Virus genome (UHGV): UHGV-0179848
Origin: a virus
Direction: 5' to 3' (one strand)
DNA length: 39,611 nt
Made by a program: the position numbers and the translations under genes. Shown here one piece after another: positions 19,881 to 38,810 of the stretch. The first letter of the stretch is position 1. Each line of letters starts with the position of its first letter. The notes under the pieces are model-generated. The model saw only the letters and a list, made by a program, of their open reading frames with translations, did no database searches and was not told where the DNA came from.

Positions 19881-21004
19881 TATTGCATTTCCTCTTTCAT
19901 TTTCAGGAATTCGGCTTCGGTTTTACCCAGAAGATGGGCGGCGGCGATATCTTCAGCCGACAGCGAGGCGGTGGCGGTCTTTTTATCCGGCACGGTCACG
20001 GTGTCGGTCTGAAGGCCGGTCAGGGCTGCAACCGGCTGTCGGGCGTCAAGCTGTGCAGAAAGTGCAGTAACACCAATCTGCCCACCCAGCTGTTCCAGAT
20101 AGCCGCGTTCGCTTTTGAAGATGCGCCCTTCGGACTCGGCCTTGTCCAGCACCTGCTCCAGAGTGGTGCTGCCGTGCTGTGCTGACAGCGCAACGTATTC
20201 GGTACGCAGGGCGTTATACGTTTCAACAGGCACATATTTCGTCAGATCAATACTGCCGCCAGCCGGTGTACCTTTTGCGGTTTCCAGCTCTGCCGACAGA
20301 CTGGCGACCTGTGTTTTCAGGTTGTCGTGTGCATCCGCACGGGTTTTGATCCCGGTGAGGGCAGACAGCGCCGCCGTGCCCAGCTCCGGCGTAAATTCGT
20401 CACCGTCAGCCACGGTCAGACCGAGCGCCGTCAGCAACTGGCGTAATTGCTCATTCATGGAGGTATCCTTTAAAGGAGGGTTTAAGGCGTTATAAAGGTC
20501 ATCCGCCGACAGCGCGGCGACAGGATTCATGCCGGTCAGACCGGGGTCACCGGTAATAGCCAGCATCCGAAGTTCGACAGGTTCGCCGGTGTTCTCGTCA
20601 TAGCCAATCACCGGTGAAAACCAGGGGAATTCGTTATTACGCAGATGTTCAAGGGCCGGAGGGTTCCACTTCGGGCGCACCTCGAAGCCACGCTCTTCAC
20701 TGAAGCGGAAGTTTTCCGGTGAAGCCGTCACAAAACCGGCAGCCGGTGCCTGATGCCCCTTAATCAGGGTCTGGTGGTTGTAGTCAATTTTTACCGGCTG
20801 ATTGAGCGCCACAACCCGGGATACCATGCGCTCAACGGTCGCACGGTTAATCAGCCAGCCTTCAGCCGGTTTTTCCGGGCGACCGTCACGGGCCTTTACC
20901 CGACCGGCTGGCATGATCTGACACCAGTCACCGTCCCCGTCTGCGGACAGGCTGATGGCATTCAGAATGGCATAAGCAAGTTTGGGCGTGTTTTTCGTCT
21001 TCAT
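19880..21004 (-). CDS. Head maturation protease/scaffold (Mu I / gp32-like)
   Basis: 374 aa immediately upstream of the major capsid gene. Confidence 0.8.
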   Translation of the reverse strand: MKTKNTPKLAYAILNAISLSADGDGDWCQIMPAGRVKARDGRPEKPAEGWLINRATVERMVSRVVALNQPVKIDYNHQTLIKGHQAPAAGFVTASPENFRFSEERGFEVRPKWNPPALEHLRNNEFPWFSPVIGYDENTGEPVELRMLAITGDPGLTGMNPVAALSADDLYNALNPPLKDTSMNEQLRQLLTALGLTVADGDEFTPELGTAALSALTGIKTRADAHDNLKTQVASLSAELETAKGTPAGGSIDLTKYVPVETYNALRTEYVALSAQHGSTTLEQVLDKAESEGRIFKSERGYLEQLGGQIGVTALSAQLDARQPVAALTGLQTDTVTVPDKKTATASLSAEDIAAAHLLGKTEAEFLKMKEEMQ

Positions 21005-21180
21005 TCCGGCAGCATAAGCCGGGAATTTTCAGGGCGGGTTTTGCGGGATTTCAGGAAGTGCTTCCAGGGGAAAAATACAAAGGCGCTTCACGCAGATTTT
21101 AAAGCCCGTTAAATACAGGTTAGAAAATCACGACACGCGCCTGAAGGGGGTAAGGTAATGCATTTGCATACCTTAAACAA
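21005..21180. promoter_or_regulatory. G-I intergenic region: candidate late promoter and possible central strong gyrase site
   Basis: Only sizeable non-coding gap in the head operon; near the prophage centre; contains imperfect palindrome AAGGTAATGCAtttTGCATACCTT (21152-21175). Confidence 0.3.
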
Positions 21181-21654: not shown

Positions 21655-21776
21655 ATTGCCTCCGTGAAACTACCTGGTTAAAATAAAAGCAGGTCGGTGT
21701 ACTCTTAACTGGTAAAGCGGCGCCTGATGGTTTTTTCCTGAGGGATGTTTATGCGGGTTCGACCCCCGCCACCGAC

Positions 21777-23102
21777 CTACAATTCACCCTCCAGTAATTC
21801 CAGCTTTCCACCGCGCAGATCATCAAGTAATGCCTCCTTTTTGACTCTGTAGGCATTAATCACCACATCCAGCTTATCCGGCTGACGTTTCACACTATAA
21901 GGCGCATTGACGGCAATCTTTGCCGTTCCGTCACGGGTTTCAGTGATGTAAAGCAGATTCTGATGGACATGATCCCACAGCACGGCATCAGGCGCGGCTA
22001 GCATTGCCGGTAATCGCCCGAAATCCTCCGGCGTCAGGGCAATGCCGTCATTCTGATGTTTCACGCTGTCCGCATGGAGCACATTTTTACCGCTCATCGC
22101 CAGCAGGCGGGCCGGTGGCGTTCCCGTCCGGCTTTCCACCGCCTGCGCAATACTTTCGGTCATAAAGCCCAGCGTGCGGATATCGTGACCACCTCGCCGG
22201 GTCTTCATGATGTTTTTTGCCCAGATGCGGAACGCCAGCTGCCGCTCCGGGCTGTTGTTCATCTCCTGAACCACCATTTCCCGTAACGCCGGGCTTTTCA
22301 CCTCGATCAGTTTACGGATCAGCGCCTGGTCTGTGCCGAACGCCGCCGAACCGGGGTTATATGACCAGCCCACATCCGGTGTCATGGTTCTGGTGCCATC
22401 TGAATATGTGGTCACCGGCATTTCTCTGACTTCTCCGGTCTGCTTATCCACGCCAGCCTCAACATTGCGGGTGGAGAGATGATCCTGACCGGATGAAACG
22501 GATAACCCCATTGCATCCAGACGGGCCTGAGATAATGGCCGGACACGGCAGCGGCAGTTCCAGCCATTGGGCGGGTAGTGTGTATTCCAGAACGGATCGT
22601 CATAGCGGAATACCAGCCCGTTAAAGGCGGAATGTGCCGGGCGGGTGCGGCTGTCCATCACCGCCACATACTGCCAGAACGGATGCGTGTCCGTGTTGTT
22701 CATCATCTGCGTGTAACGCCCGGCATTGTAAGCCACACGGGTGTTCACGTTGTAAATCAGCGCCAGACGGCGGGGACTGCCCAGCTGCACTTCTTCCGCG
22801 TTACCGGCACTGTCCACCACAATCTGTTTTCCCCACCATCCCAGCTTTTGCAGGCGGGGTGTCAGCGTGCGAATAAATGCTTTCTGTGAAATCCCCTCAT
22901 CAACAGCACGCTGCACTTCCGCCTGTAGTGTGGTCAGTACGTCCAGGCGTGCCACTTTTGCCGCCGTGAATGAACGGGCATGAACATCCGCGTCTGTTTC
23001 GAACCAGTTCCAGCTGATATGCGCCCCTTTGGCGCGGAAGTATGCCACCGCCTCTTTTGAGGGAAGCGTGGCGGCATAACCCAGATCAATCCCCTGTGCC
23101 AT
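21777..23102 (-). CDS. Head morphogenesis protein (Mu F / gp30-like)
   Basis: 441 aa downstream of portal. Confidence 0.8.
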   Translation of the reverse strand: MAQGIDLGYAATLPSKEAVAYFRAKGAHISWNWFETDADVHARSFTAAKVARLDVLTTLQAEVQRAVDEGISQKAFIRTLTPRLQKLGWWGKQIVVDSAGNAEEVQLGSPRRLALIYNVNTRVAYNAGRYTQMMNNTDTHPFWQYVAVMDSRTRPAHSAFNGLVFRYDDPFWNTHYPPNGWNCRCRVRPLSQARLDAMGLSVSSGQDHLSTRNVEAGVDKQTGEVREMPVTTYSDGTRTMTPDVGWSYNPGSAAFGTDQALIRKLIEVKSPALREMVVQEMNNSPERQLAFRIWAKNIMKTRRGGHDIRTLGFMTESIAQAVESRTGTPPARLLAMSGKNVLHADSVKHQNDGIALTPEDFGRLPAMLAAPDAVLWDHVHQNLLYITETRDGTAKIAVNAPYSVKRQPDKLDVVINAYRVKKEALLDDLRGGKLELLEGEL

Positions 23103-28288: not shown

Positions 28289-28400
28289 ACAGCCTCCGGC
28301 AATCAGGGCCGGTAAGGGATTATTCACCGCAGCCACAGCACACCCCGCAGCAGCACAACGGCACACAGCAGCGCAATCATGAGCGGTCGCCAGAAGCGGT

Positions 28401-28901
28401 TCAGACTTTCGGCAAATCGTAGCGACATAACCATTCATCCGCCGAACGGCGGGCCTCAAGACCGGGGAGTTTCACCCCCTTCGAATAAATCCAGCGGATG
28501 TACTGCTTACAGGACGCGGGCATCTGCCCGGCATTGATCAGGCGCAGAAGCGTGGAGTTGCGGAAGTTCGTTTCACCAGCCCAGAAGATCCACGAAGCCA
28601 GCGCCACCGTCTGACCACGGGTAAGCGGCACCTGAACACGCCGATCAATGGCCGCAAAGGCCCATTTCATGTCCTTTTCCAGTAGTTCCAGGCATTCTTC
28701 ATCCGTCAGGGTCATACCCGGTTTCACATCCGGGCCGGTATGGCCGTAACAGATGGTTGGTGTACCGGTGGGATCGATATACGTGGAGTTTTCTTTCCCT
28801 TCCCAGTAACCGGTGTAATGCGTGGTAATGGTGAACGTCCCGGCACCGGCCAGAACAAGGGCAATCAGCTTTTTACGCAGTGGTGCGGGGAGTTTTGGCA
28901 T
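28401..28901 (-). CDS. lys: SAR endolysin (phage lysozyme, GH24-like)
   Basis: N-terminal signal-anchor-release segment LIALVLAGAGTFTITT followed by lysozyme catalytic region YWEGKENSTYIDPTGTPTICYGHT. Confidence 0.85.
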   Translation of the reverse strand: MPKLPAPLRKKLIALVLAGAGTFTITTHYTGYWEGKENSTYIDPTGTPTICYGHTGPDVKPGMTLTDEECLELLEKDMKWAFAAIDRRVQVPLTRGQTVALASWIFWAGETNFRNSTLLRLINAGQMPASCKQYIRWIYSKGVKLPGLEARRSADEWLCRYDLPKV

Positions 28902-28972
28902 TGTTACGCTGTCTCATGATGTTCTCTGAGTCAGCGTAACGGTGAAGGAAAGGCGGCAGGCTTTGCGGAATA

Positions 28973-29395
28973 TCAGAAAAGTGGCGGTTGCGTTCTTGCC
29001 AGATGCAGACGGCGCTGTTCGCGTATGACGGTATAAATCTGGGTTTCTGACATCCTGTAATGGCGGCGCAGGGTTTCAATTTTTTCGCCCTGGCTCCAGC
29101 GGGAAAAAATCTCATTATTGCGCAGTTCGGTGAAAAGGGATTCACCGACCGGGAGATAATAACCACGCCCGCCCATGTACCCGGCCTGTGCGGCCGCAAC
29201 TTTACGGGCAAGCATTCCTGCCTGAGCAGGTTCAATCCCCTGACGGTGCAGTTCAGCACTGATCACATCAACCAGGTCCCGCAGCGTGCCGGGCCAGTTC
29301 TTTTTCAGCTCATCATCAGGAATGTCATCCAGACGGTCAATCAGCGCGTGCAGCTGTTCGCTGTCACCAAACATGCTCATCTGTGTTTCAGCCAT
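28973..29395 (-). CDS. Mor/C-family transcriptional activator (only family member in window)
   Basis: 140 aa with C-terminal HTH region resembling Mu Mor; sits between early region and lys. Confidence 0.75.
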   Translation of the reverse strand: MAETQMSMFGDSEQLHALIDRLDDIPDDELKKNWPGTLRDLVDVISAELHRQGIEPAQAGMLARKVAAAQAGYMGGRGYYLPVGESLFTELRNNEIFSRWSQGEKIETLRRHYRMSETQIYTVIREQRRLHLARTQPPLF

Positions 29396-29437
29396 ACCCG
29401 CCTCCGGTCATCATTACACAGGGCAAGTTTAAAATAA

Positions 29438-29461
29438 AAATCCCGCGCTGTGGCGGGATTT
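29438..29461. terminator. Stem-loop terminator, copy 1 of a duplicated hairpin
   Basis: AAATCCCGC-gctgtg-GCGGGATTT, 9-bp perfect stem, A-run upstream and T after. Confidence 0.5.
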
Positions 29462-29735
29462 AGAGGCGCTGTAAATCATAACCCGAAATGAGCTGTGTAT
29501 TTATTGATCATTTTCCGGTGTAACTATATGATAAAGATCGTTTTTATTTTTAAAAATACAAACCCTGAAGGAGTTTTTCTTATCAAAAAGCTTGTGCATA
29601 TTGCGGGTTATTGTTGTTTCATCAACATGAAAACCAATTATCCCAACTCTTAAAGCACACCAGGCTTGCTCCAGTGCAAAAACAAATAATTTCAGTCTGC
29701 CTGACAGCGTTCCACCGGAATAAAGGAAGATATCC

Positions 29736-30158
29736 ATGAAACAACCTCCATCTTTGCTTTTATCGTGCCCACCAGAACTGGCCCATGAACTCAATGATCT
29801 GGCGAAAGAGTATAAACTTACAAATCATAATATAGAAGCAGCAACACTTAGTGCTGCCGGAAGCGATATTGTATTGATCGTTCTGGCCGCAGCTTCATGC
29901 GATGGGTTCTGGCAGGCATTAGCCAGTATGTTTCAGACGTGGTTACATCGTAAACCAACAAAACAAACACCCCCGGAAAAGAAAGTTATTCGTAGCGTCA
30001 TTGTTCGTAGCTGGGAACACTATCAGGAGACAACTAAACAAACTGAATTTTATAACTTTGATGCTGATGAGCTGGCTAAATTGATAGCGTTATATGAAAA
30101 ACCAGATGAAACAATTGGTTGCATAATCCCGTCAGAAACGGAAATTCAGGAAAAATAA
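29736..30158 (+). CDS. Moron protein of unknown function (140 aa), opposite strand to all neighbours
   Basis: AAGGAAG Shine-Dalgarno upstream; preceded by ~270 bp AT-rich promoter-like DNA; stop codon abuts hairpin copy 2. Confidence 0.6.
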   Translation: MKQPPSLLLSCPPELAHELNDLAKEYKLTNHNIEAATLSAAGSDIVLIVLAAASCDGFWQALASMFQTWLHRKPTKQTPPEKKVIRSVIVRSWEHYQETTKQTEFYNFDADELAKLIALYEKPDETIGCIIPSETEIQEK

Positions 30159-30182
30159 AATCCCGCACTGTGGCGGGATTTG
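30159..30182. terminator. Stem-loop terminator, copy 2 of a duplicated hairpin
   Basis: AAATCCCGC-actgtg-GCGGGATTT; flanked by A-run and T-run so could act on either strand. Confidence 0.5.
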
Positions 30183-30184
30183 GG

Positions 30185-30694
30185 TTAACAGGGGAATGAT
30201 TTTTCATACAGCCTGCAAACGCGCTCATAACTCATCACTGCACGCTCCGACATATCCAGGGCTGCCAGCATTTTGCGGCGGTGCCAGCGTTTGAGACGCT
30301 CCAGCACATCAGAGGCCAGCTCGGGGTGTTGCTCCAGCCACTGCCAGTTAGCCACACCTTCGCCGCCGTTCTGCGCGGCCGTCTGCGATTGCACCCAGCG
30401 GTTAAGGGCCGTTTCCGCACCATCAGAAATAAAGCCCTGCCGGTGCATCACTTTCCAGATGGCGCGAATTTTGGCGGTCACCGTACCCGGCTTTAAGGCC
30501 CGGTTAACCGGTTTCTGACGCACTTTAAAACCGCGTTTTTTGAAAACATCCAGTACGCGGGATAACTCATCCGGTGACATATCCCGGCAACTGGCTTTAC
30601 CGGTGGCTGCCAGCAGTGCGGATGTATAGGTTTCATCATCCAGAGCAAGCTCGCGTTTTGCCACATGAATGGCAGATATCAGTTTTCCTCTCAT
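30185..30694 (-). CDS. GemA/gp16-like early protein
   Basis: N-terminus MRGKLISAIHVAKRELALDDETYTSALLAATGKASCRDMSPDELSRVLDVFKKRGF resembles remembered Mu gp16 family proteins; sits just before mor as in Mu. Confidence 0.55.
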   Translation of the reverse strand: MRGKLISAIHVAKRELALDDETYTSALLAATGKASCRDMSPDELSRVLDVFKKRGFKVRQKPVNRALKPGTVTAKIRAIWKVMHRQGFISDGAETALNRWVQSQTAAQNGGEGVANWQWLEQHPELASDVLERLKRWHRRKMLAALDMSERAVMSYERVCRLYEKSFPC

Positions 30695-31002: not shown

Positions 31003-31327
31003 TGTGTATCTCCCGTAATTCCGGTAAAGCCGAAATATGGCACCAGTGCGTCACCTGTCCATCCTCATCTTCAAGGCAGGCTCCGGTTTCTTCATCAACA
31101 AAAAAACCTTCATACCCGATATGGCCGATGCGCAGCTCCTGTCGGTGACCGTACTGAACAATCAGTACAACAGCCTCCATATCAGGCGGGAAAGCATCAT
31201 TCAGTGAATGCCAGGGATAACCGCGCAAATCCCCGAAATAAACCCCGGTCAGGGTTCCGCCACAGACCGGCATCCCGGCGGCACATACCAGAGGTTCGTC
31301 TGATTCAACAAATAAGGTCGTTATCAT
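30995..31327 (-). CDS. Hypothetical early protein (110 aa)
   Basis: ORF in operon context with overlapping start/stop. Confidence 0.45.
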   Translation of the reverse strand: MITTLFVESDEPLVCAAGMPVCGGTLTGVYFGDLRGYPWHSLNDAFPPDMEAVVLIVQYGHRQELRIGHIGYEGFFVDEETGACLEDEDGQVTHWCHISALPELREIHNG

Positions 31328-31875
31328 GGCGTTAACTCCCGTAATACAGCGTCCCCGGCAGTCCGGCGATGGTGATAAATAAAATTCACCGTACTCTCGG
31401 ATAATTCAAATTTCTCGCCTATTTCCCGGAAGGTAAGACGTCGTGGTGATTCAGCATCCCGTAATTCACGAATAAGATGAACATCATCGTCAGGTATACG
31501 GGTGAAGGGCAGCAATTCTCCGTATTTTTTCATGCTTACGCCAATATATCGCGCCCGATTGTGGACAGAATCCCGGTCTCGCCCCAGATATTCTCCTATT
31601 TGCTTACCGGTCATCGTTCTGGCATTTTTTCGGATAAATTTATCTTCATCATGTTTAAATCTTGGACGTTTGCATTTGAGCAACTCCGGGTAAGTACCGC
31701 GTAATAAAACAATCCGGTTATGTACACCCCAGAAACTTCTTTTTACCCTGACAGCAATATCCTTAACCGGGGTGGATGAATAAAGCGCAATCAGCAGCGC
31801 ATCTTCTTCAGGTGTCCACGGACGGACATGAGCGGGGGCGCGACCTTTTCGCCCCATGGGTTGTAAAATCATCAT
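31324..31875 (-). CDS. Hypothetical early protein with three tandem HTH-like repeats
   Basis: Three internal repeats (WTPEEDALLIALY..., DEDKFIRKNARTMTGKQIGEYLG..., DDDVHLIRELRDAESPRRLTFREIGEKF...) visible in the translation. Confidence 0.5.
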   Translation of the reverse strand: MMILQPMGRKGRAPAHVRPWTPEEDALLIALYSSTPVKDIAVRVKRSFWGVHNRIVLLRGTYPELLKCKRPRFKHDEDKFIRKNARTMTGKQIGEYLGRDRDSVHNRARYIGVSMKKYGELLPFTRIPDDDVHLIRELRDAESPRRLTFREIGEKFELSESTVNFIYHHRRTAGDAVLRELTP

Positions 31876-35229: not shown

Positions 35230-35457
35230 TTATCTGACTTGTTTTGCACCAACAGAACGGCATATTCCCCTGTAAACTTCTGTCGCACCTTCGCGATCAA
35301 GTCCGGCAGATATCACCATTCGTGTGCGGTCATTAAATTCAAAAAGTAAATCACCACATTCTTTATTTTCGGCCAGTGAAATCACCTTCACGTTATCGAA
35401 ATTCACCAGGTAAAAGCGTCCGTAAATATCCGGAATATTAAATACCGCCATAATCAC
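35230..35457 (-). CDS. Hypothetical early protein (75 aa) in the Mu kil position
   Basis: Immediately downstream of B, overlapping stop/start; function not inferable. Confidence 0.4.
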   Translation of the reverse strand: MIMAVFNIPDIYGRFYLVNFDNVKVISLAENKECGDLLFEFNDRTRMVISAGLDREGATEVYRGICRSVGAKQVR

Positions 35458-36395
35458 ACCTGTGAGAGTAATTCAGGGTTGGTATAAACCTCTTTAAAGG
35501 CCGCATTAATATGTTTTTCTGTCAGCACAGCGCCTTCACCACTGGCGGTGATCCACGCCTGGTTAAGCGTATGCGTCAGAACACGTAATGCTCCCGGTTT
35601 TTCAGCGATAGCCTGCATGACGGCCAGCTCGGCCTCACCACTGATCCCCCATGCCCTGGCAATGGCCAGCACATCCGCCTTTTTGGCCTTGCGAAGTTGT
35701 TTTGTACGGGCAAGACGGCTGAACAGGCGCGATAAATCATCAACGGCGCGGCGTCCACCTTTAAACAGTCCGCGCGGGTTACCAATAAGCACCATCCCGA
35801 TCCCCGTGGCGTCCTGGATTGCCCTGAGTTGCTCCAGACCGTCAATACCAAGATGATCCGCCTCATCAACAATCACCAGTCCACGCGTTCCCATCAGGCG
35901 ACGGCGGATTGCGCGGGATAATGCCCCTTTGTTCGCGCGGGTGTAATCAATCCCCAGTTCCTCTGCCAGCTCCAGCAGACACTCCGTGACGCTGGAATGC
36001 GCAGGCGACAGGGTGATCATCCAGGTGTTCGGTTGCTCCTGACAGTAATTACGGGCTGTGGCCGTTTTACCCACACCCGGTACGCCCACAATGACGTTAA
36101 TACAGCCCATCAGGCGAACCGCCTGAAACAGTGCGCGCAGCTCCTGGACTGTCTGCGTTTCAACAAACTGCGGCGGCTCGGGCAGTGCGCTTTGTTTATT
36201 CCAGTTCTCATACCAGGAACGCAGGGAAGCAGCCACAGCAGCGTTATCGCCTTTATATTTCCCCTTACGGAAAGCCGATAATGTGCCGTCGGAAATTCCC
36301 GCCTCTCTGGCGATGGCATACTGCGTCAGTACGCCGCCATCAATAAGTTCATCAATGGTCTTGATTACATCGTTAATATCGGTCATATTATTCAC
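35454..36395 (-). CDS. B: MuB-like transposition ATPase (target DNA activator)
   Basis: 313 aa; Walker A GVPGVGKT; collinear similarity to Mu B (LPEPPQFVETQTV, VIVDEADHLG, KKADV..IA.AW.I.GE, KPGALR). Confidence 0.9.
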   Translation of the reverse strand: MNNMTDINDVIKTIDELIDGGVLTQYAIAREAGISDGTLSAFRKGKYKGDNAAVAASLRSWYENWNKQSALPEPPQFVETQTVQELRALFQAVRLMGCINVIVGVPGVGKTATARNYCQEQPNTWMITLSPAHSSVTECLLELAEELGIDYTRANKGALSRAIRRRLMGTRGLVIVDEADHLGIDGLEQLRAIQDATGIGMVLIGNPRGLFKGGRRAVDDLSRLFSRLARTKQLRKAKKADVLAIARAWGISGEAELAVMQAIAEKPGALRVLTHTLNQAWITASGEGAVLTEKHINAAFKEVYTNPELLSQV

Positions 36396-36469
36396 CTCGC
36401 TTGAGACAGCATTCTCCGAGACAGAAACCTCAAATAACCTGAGTCACCCCTCGGGTTATTTTTTTTATT

Positions 36470-38560
36470 TCAGGCCAGCGGATCATTTTCTTTTAATTTC
36501 GCTTCGAGCAGTTGCAAACCCCGCTGGAAATTACGCTCGTATTCTTCGTCAGGTTCATCGTCAGCGACTGGTTGCTGAACGGTCACCGTATTACCCACAG
36601 GGCGGTATATGTTTTCCAGCCATGGCTCCTGCGGCTTGTGCTCCAGCACGTTGACAACCTCATCCTCGGCATCACGGATTTTTTCCTCTGCGCGTTTACG
36701 CATACCTTTAAGGCGCTGCTGCTGTTTGTAGTATTCCGCGCTGACAGGGAAGGCTTCGCGTTTATTGCCGTCCCATACCGCCTCGCAAATCACGCTGCCA
36801 TCCGGGCGGCGTACGGTAATTCGTTCGGCATCATGAATGTCATAGCTGATAAGCACTTTGCGGCCATGTTCATCACGCAGCTCGGGCGCGTAGTAAATAT
36901 TATTCAGCCAGCGTATTTCACAGCGTCTTACAGGGCGTTCCACCATCGGCCGGAACATGTCCCGCAATTCCACATCGGACAGCCATTCAATTTCCGTGTC
37001 CTCTTCCGCCAGGCGTTTTTTTCTGAACTCCGCCGGGCTGTAATGTTTACCGTTCGGCTTTATGGGTAATTCATCGTGCGGCCGGTTGTTGTACCACTCA
37101 ACGCCGTCACGAATGGCATCAATCAGTTCAGACCAGGACGGTAAATCACGCATCGCTGACTGCTGCCGGGCGTTCAGCCGCTTGCCCTGTTGCAGGGCAC
37201 TGAATGCCGAGCGTAAATCGCGGTTGGTTTTACGTAACGTCTCGCGATCTGCACCTTTCCCGAAATAGGTGCGGTATTTACGGGCTATGCGCATCGGTAA
37301 TGTGCGGTTAAGCCGTTCGATAATGCCCCGTCCCTGCGGATTACCGGCAATCCCGGTCGGGTGATTAATCCCCAGTCGCGGTAGTATCCCCACAACCTCC
37401 TTATCCAGGATGTCGGCCGTTTCCCCCGAGCCATTATCCGAGTAATACAGAAACGGTTTGCCGTGATGGCGAATGCCGTGCTGTATGGCACCGGCTACGG
37501 CGAAAACATTTTCAGCCAGGTCAAGGCTCCAGCCCACCACAAAGCGCGTGCCACCGTCGATAACAAAGGTCACTTCCGGTGCAAATGGTCGCCCGTGAAC
37601 CGGGTGCGCACATTTCAGCTTCATGCCGTGACCGTCACCAATCCAGACATAATTCACCGGCATTCTGGACCAGTCGCGGCGCGTGAATCCCTCAAGCTGG
37701 CGGTATTCACTGCCGGTCACCCGGCCTTTTTGTTTCACCACTTCCGGCAGTTTCTTCATCGCGCGGCGAATGGTGTCATAAGAGGGCATGATATCGAGCA
37801 TATAAGGCTCATCAGCGTGCCGGTGCTGCCATTCGGCGACAAAATCCTCGTAAGCCTCGGTCATTGGTCGGCCGTTTGACTGGCGATACTGCGCCAGAAA
37901 CTCGGGCAACCAGCTAATATCTTCGGCTTTTATTTCCTGACGTTTACCCGGTGCCAGTAAAAGTAGGCGTTCAGCGGCGTTCTGCGCCTTGTTAAAGGCC
38001 GCAATCCAGCGTTTCAGCGTGATTTCACTCAACGCGCGGCTGTTTCCCTTTTTGGCGTTCGCCGTTTCAACCATTGCCACAATGCGTTCGTCCAGTTGCG
38101 AGCGTGACAGACGGTCAACAATAAACCGGATAGCTTTAGCGCAGCTGAAACCGGGTTGTTGCGCGAATTTAAGCACCTCGCTGACAATCGCAATTCGTGC
38201 ATCGGCCACCTGGCGCTGTTTTTCAGTCAGTGCATTGATACGTTCGACCATCAGTTGGGGTGATCCGCGATATGCCTCCACCGCATCAACCACGGCAGGT
38301 GAGCGTCTGGCCTTTGTCACCACCGGAACCGGTGACTCATCGGCTTTTTGCGCCATCAGTTGCAGGGCGTAGCGTTCACGTAATGCCTGCTGCGTCACTT
38401 CAGGTAAACAGTCGATGCTGTATTCAGTTGCTTTAGATCCTGAGCGACGACGGGAACAACAGCTTTTCCCTTGTGCGTAACGTTGTAATGCCTGGCGAAT
38501 ACCTTTTGTAGTTGCAGGCATTCCGGGCGCACCAATCAGTTCTTTTGCAATGAAATACAT
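36470..38560 (-). CDS. A: MuA-like DDE transposase
   Basis: 696 aa; N-terminal DNA-binding domain resembling MuA domain I (KELIGAPGMPATTKGI versus Mu KECANLPGLPKTSAGV); size and position as Mu A. Confidence 0.95.
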   Translation of the reverse strand: MYFIAKELIGAPGMPATTKGIRQALQRYAQGKSCCSRRRSGSKATEYSIDCLPEVTQQALRERYALQLMAQKADESPVPVVTKARRSPAVVDAVEAYRGSPQLMVERINALTEKQRQVADARIAIVSEVLKFAQQPGFSCAKAIRFIVDRLSRSQLDERIVAMVETANAKKGNSRALSEITLKRWIAAFNKAQNAAERLLLLAPGKRQEIKAEDISWLPEFLAQYRQSNGRPMTEAYEDFVAEWQHRHADEPYMLDIMPSYDTIRRAMKKLPEVVKQKGRVTGSEYRQLEGFTRRDWSRMPVNYVWIGDGHGMKLKCAHPVHGRPFAPEVTFVIDGGTRFVVGWSLDLAENVFAVAGAIQHGIRHHGKPFLYYSDNGSGETADILDKEVVGILPRLGINHPTGIAGNPQGRGIIERLNRTLPMRIARKYRTYFGKGADRETLRKTNRDLRSAFSALQQGKRLNARQQSAMRDLPSWSELIDAIRDGVEWYNNRPHDELPIKPNGKHYSPAEFRKKRLAEEDTEIEWLSDVELRDMFRPMVERPVRRCEIRWLNNIYYAPELRDEHGRKVLISYDIHDAERITVRRPDGSVICEAVWDGNKREAFPVSAEYYKQQQRLKGMRKRAEEKIRDAEDEVVNVLEHKPQEPWLENIYRPVGNTVTVQQPVADDEPDEEYERNFQRGLQLLEAKLKENDPLA

Positions 38561-38561
38561 A

Positions 38562-38810
38562 TCATGACGCCTTTCTCATATAGCTCTTAACCTGGTATCT
38601 GCTGGGCCAGATTTCTTCAGGTGACACACCAAGAGCATCAGCAATTATTTGTTGATATGGGCGGCAAGGGGTGCGTAATACGCTTTTCAGCGAATCCCTG
38701 CTGTAACCAGCCTTTAAAGATAAAGAGCGCAGTGATAAGCCAGCCATGTGCAGGCGCGCCTTGATGATTTCTGGCGGCCAATCGTGATCTGAAACTTCTC
38801 TTCTACTCAT
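38562..38810 (-). CDS. ner: Ner-like DNA-binding regulator (Nlp/Ner family)
   Basis: KARLHMAGLSLRSLSLKAGYSRDSLKSVL...QQIIADALGVSPEEIWPSRY parallels Mu Ner. Confidence 0.85.
   Translation of the reverse strand: MSRREVSDHDWPPEIIKARLHMAGLSLRSLSLKAGYSRDSLKSVLRTPCRPYQQIIADALGVSPEEIWPSRYQVKSYMRKAS

Follow-up and report, generated by a model that had tools for sequence, protein, structure and literature searches.

A single Mor/C-family activator of the C type between gemA and lys in a Mu-like prophage of Escherichia coli

The minus strand of the window, by which we mean the whole 39,611-nucleotide stretch of virus genome UHGV-0179848 that was analysed, is a Mu-like prophage of E. coli, and the only Mor/C-family gene that it carries (28973..29395, minus strand, 140 aa; Pfam Mor, PHROG 532 and Mu C similarity) encodes what its sequence identifies as a late activator of the C type. 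In that, the prophage belongs with the single-activator Mu-like phages, in which early expression is followed by late expression. Taken as a whole, the arrangement is probably best explained by a lytic programme of two stages, early and late, which combines an activator gene expressed by read-through, late promoters devoid of a -35 hexamer and a hairpin at lys.

Read from the right end of the window, the gene order is ner, A, B, the semi-essential early region, gemA (30185..30694, minus strand; Pfam GemA, 104 bits), which is the last recognizable early gene, the Mor/C-family gene and lys, beyond which follow the head and tail genes, the invertase gene, cargo genes and com/mom. The endolysin gene lys (28401..28901, minus strand; Pfam Phage_lysozyme, 127 bits; homologous to Mu lys at 6e-29) is the first late gene, and the gap between it and the activator gene (28902..28972) measures 71 bp, just as a preliminary description of this DNA had stated. 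Positions 28300-30300 are 100% identical to the E. coli chromosome NZ_AP045179.1 and 90-95% identical to 228 further E. coli records.

Prophages of this family are mosaics. The early region at ~35400-38800 is not collinear with the locus of NZ_AP045179.1 (L004), the A and B genes being offset by 166 bp, and positions 4900-5150 are 100% identical to another genome, NZ_CP075697.1. In NZ_AP045179.1 the Mu-like prophage adjoins or sits inside another integrative element, with tyrosine integrase and Icd-like cell-division inhibitor genes flanking it near cspD (L004, 1-2500 and 41200-43100). The RefSeq annotation of the identical prophage also places a "tRNA-OTHER" in antisense orientation between the F-like and G-like head genes (21693-21777, plus strand); ARAGORN, run over the window, predicted no tRNA.

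The sole Mor/C-family gene and its relatives

The preliminary description had noted one Mor/C-like ORF and offered two readings of it, namely that the middle-to-late cascade is compressed into one activator, or that a C homologue is too diverged to spot, and it proposed profile searches of the ORFs for Mor/C domains. Such searches have now been run and returned no second member of the family. When phmmer and hmmsearch (with --max) were used with Mu Mor, Mu C, the window protein and a three-sequence profile as queries against 914 six-frame stop-to-stop segments of at least 25 aa from the whole window, ORF 28973..29395 alone was significant, the runner-up having E=0.09, and hhalign of a seven-sequence family alignment against 277 ORFs (45-260 aa, both strands) gave 100% for the same ORF and 5.7% for the next. 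In the RefSeq annotation of the identical prophage, too, there is one Mor-family protein. These results bear out that the ORF is the sole one of its kind; a second candidate, the 75-aa ORF 35230..35457 located after B, which matched Mu Mor at E=0.09, was dismissed for having no Pfam match and for falling below the 0.7% of the 15th-ranked hhalign match.

The reading of a C homologue too diverged for recognition is left unsupported by these sequence and profile searches, while that of a cascade compressed into one activator gains support both from them and from the layout being kept across the clade, as described below. A homologous middle operon is likewise missing; what lies between gemA and the activator gene is a variable slot for cargo. 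Since neither the two paralogues nor the middle operon of a Mu-type three-stage cascade was found, the cascade of this prophage is not of that type.

The activator matches the Pfam Mor family (PF08765) with 106.3 bits (cut-off 24.9) over positions 2-107 of the 107 in the profile, and PHROG 532, "late transcriptional activator", at 6.9e-45. It is closer to Mu C (40% identity, 112 bits) than to Mu Mor (28%, 58 bits), the two Mu proteins being 37% identical to each other, and its top match in the PDB is "Late transcription activator C" (chains 9l0x/9vw8, 7e-29), behind which comes Mor ("Middle operon regulator", 1rr7) at 4e-11. In a small neighbor-joining tree, whose deep nodes are weak, the clade of the window joins Mu C with 87% bootstrap support, the single activators of Pasteurellaceae phages join this pair next with 70%, and Mor lies outside the group together with the activators of BcepMu and martha 12B12. 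On sequence grounds, the sole activator is thus the counterpart of Mu C and not of Mor. Since the gene that is present is a C homologue, the missing element is Mor together with the middle operon, and not C; the earlier statement that there is "no separate C-like gene" has to be inverted.

The features of the protein fit this assignment. It shares with Mu C the Pfam family, the length of 140 aa, the GG..Y.P.G linker and a C-terminal helix-turn-helix (HTH). The family is characterized by proteins of ~100-150 aa whose N-terminal half is acidic and whose C-terminal half, with the HTH, is basic, and which have an invariant G-G..Y.P.G beta-strand linker (PMC2582627). In the window protein the linker residues G75, G76, Y80, P82 and G84 align with G70, G71, Y75, P77 and G79 of C, and a count by eye gives ~13 acidic and ~7 basic residues for positions 1-70 and ~7 acidic and ~11 basic ones for positions 71-140. 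Late transcription by Mu C requires two clamp-binding motifs, QHDLF and QPDLF, for which the definitions Qx[D/E][L/M]F (N-terminal), QPDLF (C-terminal) and QL[SD]LF (general) have been given (PMC12867686). Motifs that resemble these two in sequence are placed at both the N and the C terminus of the window protein, as in Mu C: QMSMF (residues 5-9) has S at the D/E position of the consensus, which the general motif permits, and QPPLF (residues 136-140) has P at the position of D.

The position of the gene combines traits of both Mu regulators. As with Mu C, the activator gene lies immediately 5' of lys; as with Mu Mor (gp17), which is of the same family, it comes next after gemA, where the early region ends, and the terminator hairpin of the early transcript is nearby. 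In Mu, however, mor overlaps gemA and is located upstream of the terminator, whereas the gene of the window is downstream of the terminator and abuts lys, and whereas Mu C sits in a middle operon with E18-E20, the window gene follows gemA across that terminator. Unlike Mu, the window has neither Mor nor a Mor-dependent Pm.

How general this layout is was assessed with 41 related loci, which fall into tiers of protein identity of 100, 96, 88, 69-67, 58-56, 45 and 40%; a scan of genome contigs gave three loci, and viral contigs supplied most of the comparative material. A single Mor/C gene was present within ±10 kb in 41/41 loci, if one counts L008, where the ORF is in two adjoining fragments, probably through a frameshift. 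Wherever the locus was long enough, gemA was upstream and lys downstream of the activator gene, and this order is kept down to 56% identity. The same procedure applied to Mu returned two separate Mor/C genes. In a census of 50,697 phage records by tblastn with the activator protein, 48 records matched, and two copies were found in 14 of them, all of which are Muvirus (Mu, D108, SfMu and Yersinia Mu phages). The other 34 of the 48, from more than 10 genera, had one copy, although a census by one tblastn query could let very divergent second copies escape; they comprise two Stx-phage records with an inserted Mu-like element, Pmp9, MuM16-1, MuM16-2, HS6, martha 12B12 and its Vibrio relatives, BcepMu, phiE255, and Ralstonia, Klebsiella and E. 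coli PhiKM phages.

The annotations of Pmp9, MuM16-1, martha 12B12 and BcepMu all show gemA followed by one activator gene, after which comes directly the endolysin gene in Pmp9 and lysis or late genes in martha 12B12. A layout with one activator and without a middle stage was reported for 3927AP2, phiMhaMu2 and SuMu by Niu et al. (PMC4553209). One post-gemA activator is therefore common to the window, 3927AP2 and phiMhaMu2 (Mannheimia), SuMu (Haemophilus), Pmp9 (Pasteurella), martha 12B12 (Vibrio), MuM16-1 (Shewanella) and BcepMu (Burkholderia), the other phages differing from the window in their hosts and having activators of 28-44% protein identity. The Pasteurellaceae phages share with the window an activator gene directly before the endolysin gene, whereas in BcepMu and MuM16-1 the activator gene overlaps gemA, with neither a terminator nor an insertion slot. 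Given the conserved loci, the tblastn census, the annotated examples and the published report (PMC4553209), the one-activator design is the rule among Mu-like phages outside Muvirus, and as such was already known.

Candidate late promoters

Upstream of both lys and I there is a shared motif, CTGA-N4/5-CCGCAA-N24-TAnnnT, without any -35-like hexamer. At both genes, the motif and its spacing are found again in the 96%, 67-69% and 56-58% tiers, whose spacers are divergent, and the distance of 24 nt from CCGCAA to the -10 hexamer holds at lys and I in all tiers. The candidate activator-dependent lys promoter (28927..28982, minus strand), the motif of which is conserved in all identity tiers, has its box CTGATATTCCGCAA at 28976..28963 (minus strand) and its -10 hexamer TACGCT at 28938..28933, with the start predicted at ~28927-28925. 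This box overlaps the 3' end of the activator gene (28963-28982), such that its CTGA includes the TGA stop of the gene and the CTTTTC just before it encodes the L-F of QPPLF. The second late-type promoter, likewise with a conserved box and -10, lies upstream of I (protease/scaffold) at 21005..21060 (minus strand), with the box CTGAAATCCCGCAA at 21054..21041 and the -10 hexamer TATGCT at 21016..21011. A search of the window for a strict 22-nt version of the box gave exactly two sites, on the phage strand in both cases and just upstream of lys and I. It has to be noted that the I-promoter -10 ends 6 nt before the conserved I ATG (21004-21016; 7 nt in distant tiers), and that because of this proximity the I transcript would have little or no leader. 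Around this -10 there is a small inverted repeat, CCGGC...GCCGG, which abuts the ATG and showed no covariation.

That the motif is a genuine regulatory element is best supported by an independent third match. A two-block PWM trained on the lys and I promoters only, with 20 shuffled windows as the null, scored 24.5 bits at a site upstream of the DUF6645 cargo ORF (2831..4912), the next real match having 11 and the maximum among the shuffles being 15.7. This third late-type promoter candidate (4936..4982, minus strand) consists of the box CTGAATTAACGCAA, a spacer of 23 nt and TATGAT, and is located 24 nt upstream of the ORF. The block behind it, comprising a 693-aa DUF6645 / PHROG 143 protein and then genes labelled DUF1378 and DUF826 by RefSeq (2831-4982), is situated between the invertase gene and com/mom and had no PADLOC match. 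In lambdoid/Stx phages, a DUF6645-DUF1378-DUF826 block is typically part of the late region. When relatives were sought that have com/mom immediately behind the third promoter, nearly every record listed had the junction of a recombinase (gin-like) gene with DUF6645.

With the -10 hexamer set at -12 to -7, CCGCAA falls at -42 to -37, and at lys the centre of an imperfect dyad (CTTTnC...GnAAAG) lies near -45. The dyads to which Mu C and Mor bind, in promoters that lack a -35, have their centre at -43.5 (PMC2582627; PMC4287176), so that the dyad near -45 would have the geometry known for these two proteins. By this analogy we infer that the activator binds the CTGA-N4/5-CCGCAA boxes, and the likeness extends to the general build of the targets of Mu C, since the candidate promoters have a hexamer at -10 and none at -35, together with an element that is conserved ~37-50 bp before the start. 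It is by analogy alone that the motif is linked to the activator, which would probably switch on the late promoters.

The DNA specificity must nevertheless differ from that of Mu C, the box being CTGA-N4/5-CCGCAA in the window vs TTAT-N5-6-ATAA for Mu C, since the latter is absent from the starts of the late genes: the Mu C consensus has three matches in the window, all of which are within ORFs (mom, DUF6645), and a scan of the window found none upstream of lys, I, P or com. Mu Plys itself has a look-alike, CATAATCCCGCACC. The window has three candidate late promoters vs four in Mu, with none at the positions of PP or Pmom; neither the motif nor the PWM had a site at the Mu PP position (inside N) or upstream of com/mom. 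The stretch upstream of com (1440-1620) has clusters of GATC and short palindromes, e.g. AATCGATCG/CGATCGATT at 1448-1472, and resembles the region of Mu mom controlled by Dam/OxyR.

The inverted repeat before lys

The gap between the activator gene and lys contains an inverted repeat, or RNA hairpin, at 28903..28940 (minus strand), with arms of 14 nt (28903-28916 and 28927-28940) that are complementary at 13/14 positions, a loop of 10 nt and a perfect 9-bp core (GTTACGCTG at 28903-28911, CAGCGTAAC at 28932-28940). The 8-bp inverted repeat that the preliminary description had placed at 28905-28940 is thus real, but its extent was under-reported. A search of the window returned 41 inverted repeats of at least 9 nt, among which the one at lys was listed fourth, and a bare inverted repeat of 8-9 bp is for that reason not beyond chance; what makes the lys repeat notable is its 14-nt extent, its position and its conservation.

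In the direction of phage transcription, the 5' arm (28940..28927) covers the -10 hexamer TACGCT, and the 3' arm (28916..28903) stops 1 nt short of the lys AUG. RNA that reads through from upstream is predicted to fold into a 13-bp hairpin of -21.6 kcal/mol (z=-4.3), a value matched by 0/200 shuffles, while RNA beginning at the predicted late start (~28926) folds at -2.9 kcal/mol and is essentially unstructured. RNAalifold, applied to eight distinct sequences from four tiers, keeps a helix of eight pairs, in which the -10 segment pairs with the bases before the start codon, and in the distant tiers the 3' arm of this helix includes the GGAG ribosome-binding site. Within the helix, one pair is altered on both sides (U-A in five, G-C in three) and two pairs wobble; in the L039 lineage two of the pairs are broken.

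Two other roles for the repeat were ruled out. The activator cannot bind the lys promoter at the repeat, as the latter overlaps the -10 and the start and extends to 1 nt before the ATG, and a role as terminator is excluded by the lack of a T tract behind it. A terminator scan of the gap between the activator gene and lys found none in the E. coli tiers. In a Citrobacter relative (L006) a canonical terminator is present between the two genes, as in Mu. The gap of the window differs from that of Mu accordingly, Mu having a terminator and the window an inverted repeat that spans the -10 hexamer.

We advance as a tentative hypothesis that the hairpin may keep lys untranslated on mRNA that reads through from the activator gene, so that transcripts from the late promoter alone would be translated. 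The generalization of this is somewhat more doubtful, namely that in the late promoters of the clade the -10 hexamer could at the same time be one arm of an RNA helix, the other arm of which is the ribosome-binding site or start codon of the first late gene, leaving read-through RNA silent for endolysin; the helix between the -10 and the start region is strong at lys and has a weak analogue at I. It speaks against the hypothesis that both arms are under constraint for another reason, serving as -10 hexamer and ribosome-binding site, and that the covariation is thin. If the hypothesis is true, a translational insulator would replace both the terminator of Mu and a separate middle stage, and would let the activator gene abut lys across a gap of 71 bp.

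Expression of the activator gene and the lytic programme

A terminator-like hairpin, AAATCCCGCCACAGCGCGGGATTT followed by TTATTTTAAA (29438..29461, minus strand), lies 42 nt upstream of the activator ATG; the terminator scan gave it a 9-bp stem and a T tail, and its fold has -13.4 kcal/mol (z=-3.0). A second copy with one substitution in the loop (30158..30181, minus strand) lies directly after the stop codon of gemA. In most relatives the hairpin AAATCCCGCCACAGCGCGGGATTT with its T tract is 3-10 nt after gemA and the activator ATG is ~45 nt further on, and the same hairpin is found after gemA in relatives that have no insert. What separates gemA from the activator gene in the window is a low-GC cargo insert (29462..30157, ~700 bp, GC 0.41) with an ORF of 140 aa (29736..30158, plus strand) antisense to phage transcription, for which there was no match in Pfam, PHROG or PADLOC. 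Of the 232 related E. coli records, 228 lack the insert, and these match the query in two pieces that cover 66% of it; the cassette is present in the window and three other genomes. In the window the insert is flanked by a direct repeat of ~30 nt that is the hairpin with its T tract. The hairpin is thus present twice in the window because the cargo cassette inserted at it.

The slot between gemA and the activator gene is a hot spot of insertion (L015, L019, L038, L039, L041, L043-L046 and the window), holding at least five unrelated cassettes in different prophages. Four of them have low GC (0.39-0.44) and a main ORF antisense to phage transcription, two of these antisense ORFs starting with signal-peptide-like N-termini, and a fifth (L015) has a GC of 0.54 and an ORF of 445 aa on the phage strand. 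The 24-nt hairpin of the window (29438-29461, 30158-30181) recurs identically in L006 (9930-9953) and L042 (9926-9949) while the activators are only 56-67% identical and the sequence that immediately follows the hairpin has diverged. A search of IMG/VR for the exact 24-mer returned 17 contigs, all of them of these Mu-like prophages. The hairpin is conserved beyond the need of a plain terminator and may be a recombination or protein-binding site.

In the two-stage programme that we favour, an early and a late stage would replace the three stages of Mu. The activator gene, at the end of the early region, would be transcribed by early transcripts reading through the leaky terminator or terminators, and the terminator between gemA and the activator gene would delay and limit the synthesis of the activator. 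The activator would then turn on the promoters without -35 before lys, I and the DUF6645 cargo operon. On read-through mRNA, the pairing of the -10 segment with the bases abutting the lys start codon would form the hairpin that blocks lys translation, whereas transcripts from the late promoter would be devoid of the 5' arm and hence be translated. Transcription of the activator gene by read-through is the most likely option since no recognizable promoter of its own was found: a sigma-70 promoter scan of the phage strand from gemA to the activator gene scored none, and the late-promoter models (both PWMs) had no match before the activator gene. This part of the programme is weakened, however, by two terminators in series and at least five mostly antisense cassettes being tolerated. 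Because of the latter, the activator gene may have a promoter of its own in the conserved ~60 nt downstream of the insertion point, where a conserved TAnnnT (29431..29426), 4 nt after the T run, could be the -10 of such a dedicated promoter.

A promoter in these ~60 nt would be driven, in an alternative that retains three stages, by a middle-stage regulator from outside the Mor/C family, the candidate being the AsnC/sigma-r4-like HTH protein of 183 aa that is encoded in the early region (31324..31875, minus strand), a possible extra regulator. All insertions in the slot are upstream of CCACAG...GGGATTTTT, so that the segment downstream is always retained, its TAnnnT (TAAACT, TATATT or TATAGT) keeps its register throughout the tiers, and antisense cassettes with terminators are tolerated. 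Nevertheless, no promoter of the sigma-70 type was scored in the segment, no conserved upstream operator survives the insertions, and the C-terminal HTH matches of the candidate regulator (AsnC-type, sigma-70 region 4, MarR) are weak and all under the Pfam cut-offs. Furthermore, in BcepMu and MuM16-1 gemA overlaps the single activator gene, which leaves no room for a promoter. We regard this alternative as unlikely.

Another alternative is that the activator acts on its own gene, with a perfect dyad upstream of it, AAATCCCGC-N6-GCGGGATTT, as the operator and a trickle of activator from read-through being amplified by positive feedback. The centre of the dyad lies 43.5 bp before the start that would follow from TGTAAT (29418..29413), a geometry that in the 100% and 96% tiers fits the -43.5 centre of Mor and C. 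Its half-site resembles the late box, AAATCCCGC also being in the box of the I promoter; in Mu the Mor site overlaps the early terminator hairpin; and the identity of the hairpin across tiers whose proteins are just 56-67% identical would likewise suit an operator. The 88% and 56-69% tiers, however, have no TGTAAT, the late-promoter model is without a match at the dyad, the register from box to -10 is 6-8 bp off that of the lys and I promoters, and in the insert-bearing loci L015, L038 and L045 the copy proximal to the activator gene is without its left arm or is missing as a whole hairpin. Autoactivation is for us an improbable explanation.

That the prophage is a decayed Mu relative which lost mor, its arrangement being without working regulatory logic, is most improbable. 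In its favour, many prophages are defective, and in the window gemA and the activator gene are kept apart by cargo. The layout, however, is shared by more than 200 E. coli genomes and by Citrobacter/Salmonella-type relatives whose flanking genes are intact, and it is also seen in phages of other genera that were isolated from plaques or by induction; the structural genes are all annotated as intact in the RefSeq record of the identical prophage, and the related O157 prophage Sp18 was judged intact (PMC2669165).

The arrangement itself is already known in kind, and current understanding is not overturned by it; the new detail, which is inferential in nature, consists of the promoter motif at three sites, the terminator that is also an insertion slot and the possible translational insulator. 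What is corrected is an expectation centred on Mu, in that the relay from Mor to C is peculiar to Muvirus and a single activator of the C type is the common design. With the two-stage programme, a widespread family of E. coli/STEC (Sp18-like) prophages gains a regulatory map that can be tested, with one activator gene, three candidate target promoters, of which one would drive lambdoid-type cargo, an early-operon terminator that doubles as the insertion site of cargo, and possibly an RNA device that may silence endolysin until the late promoter fires.
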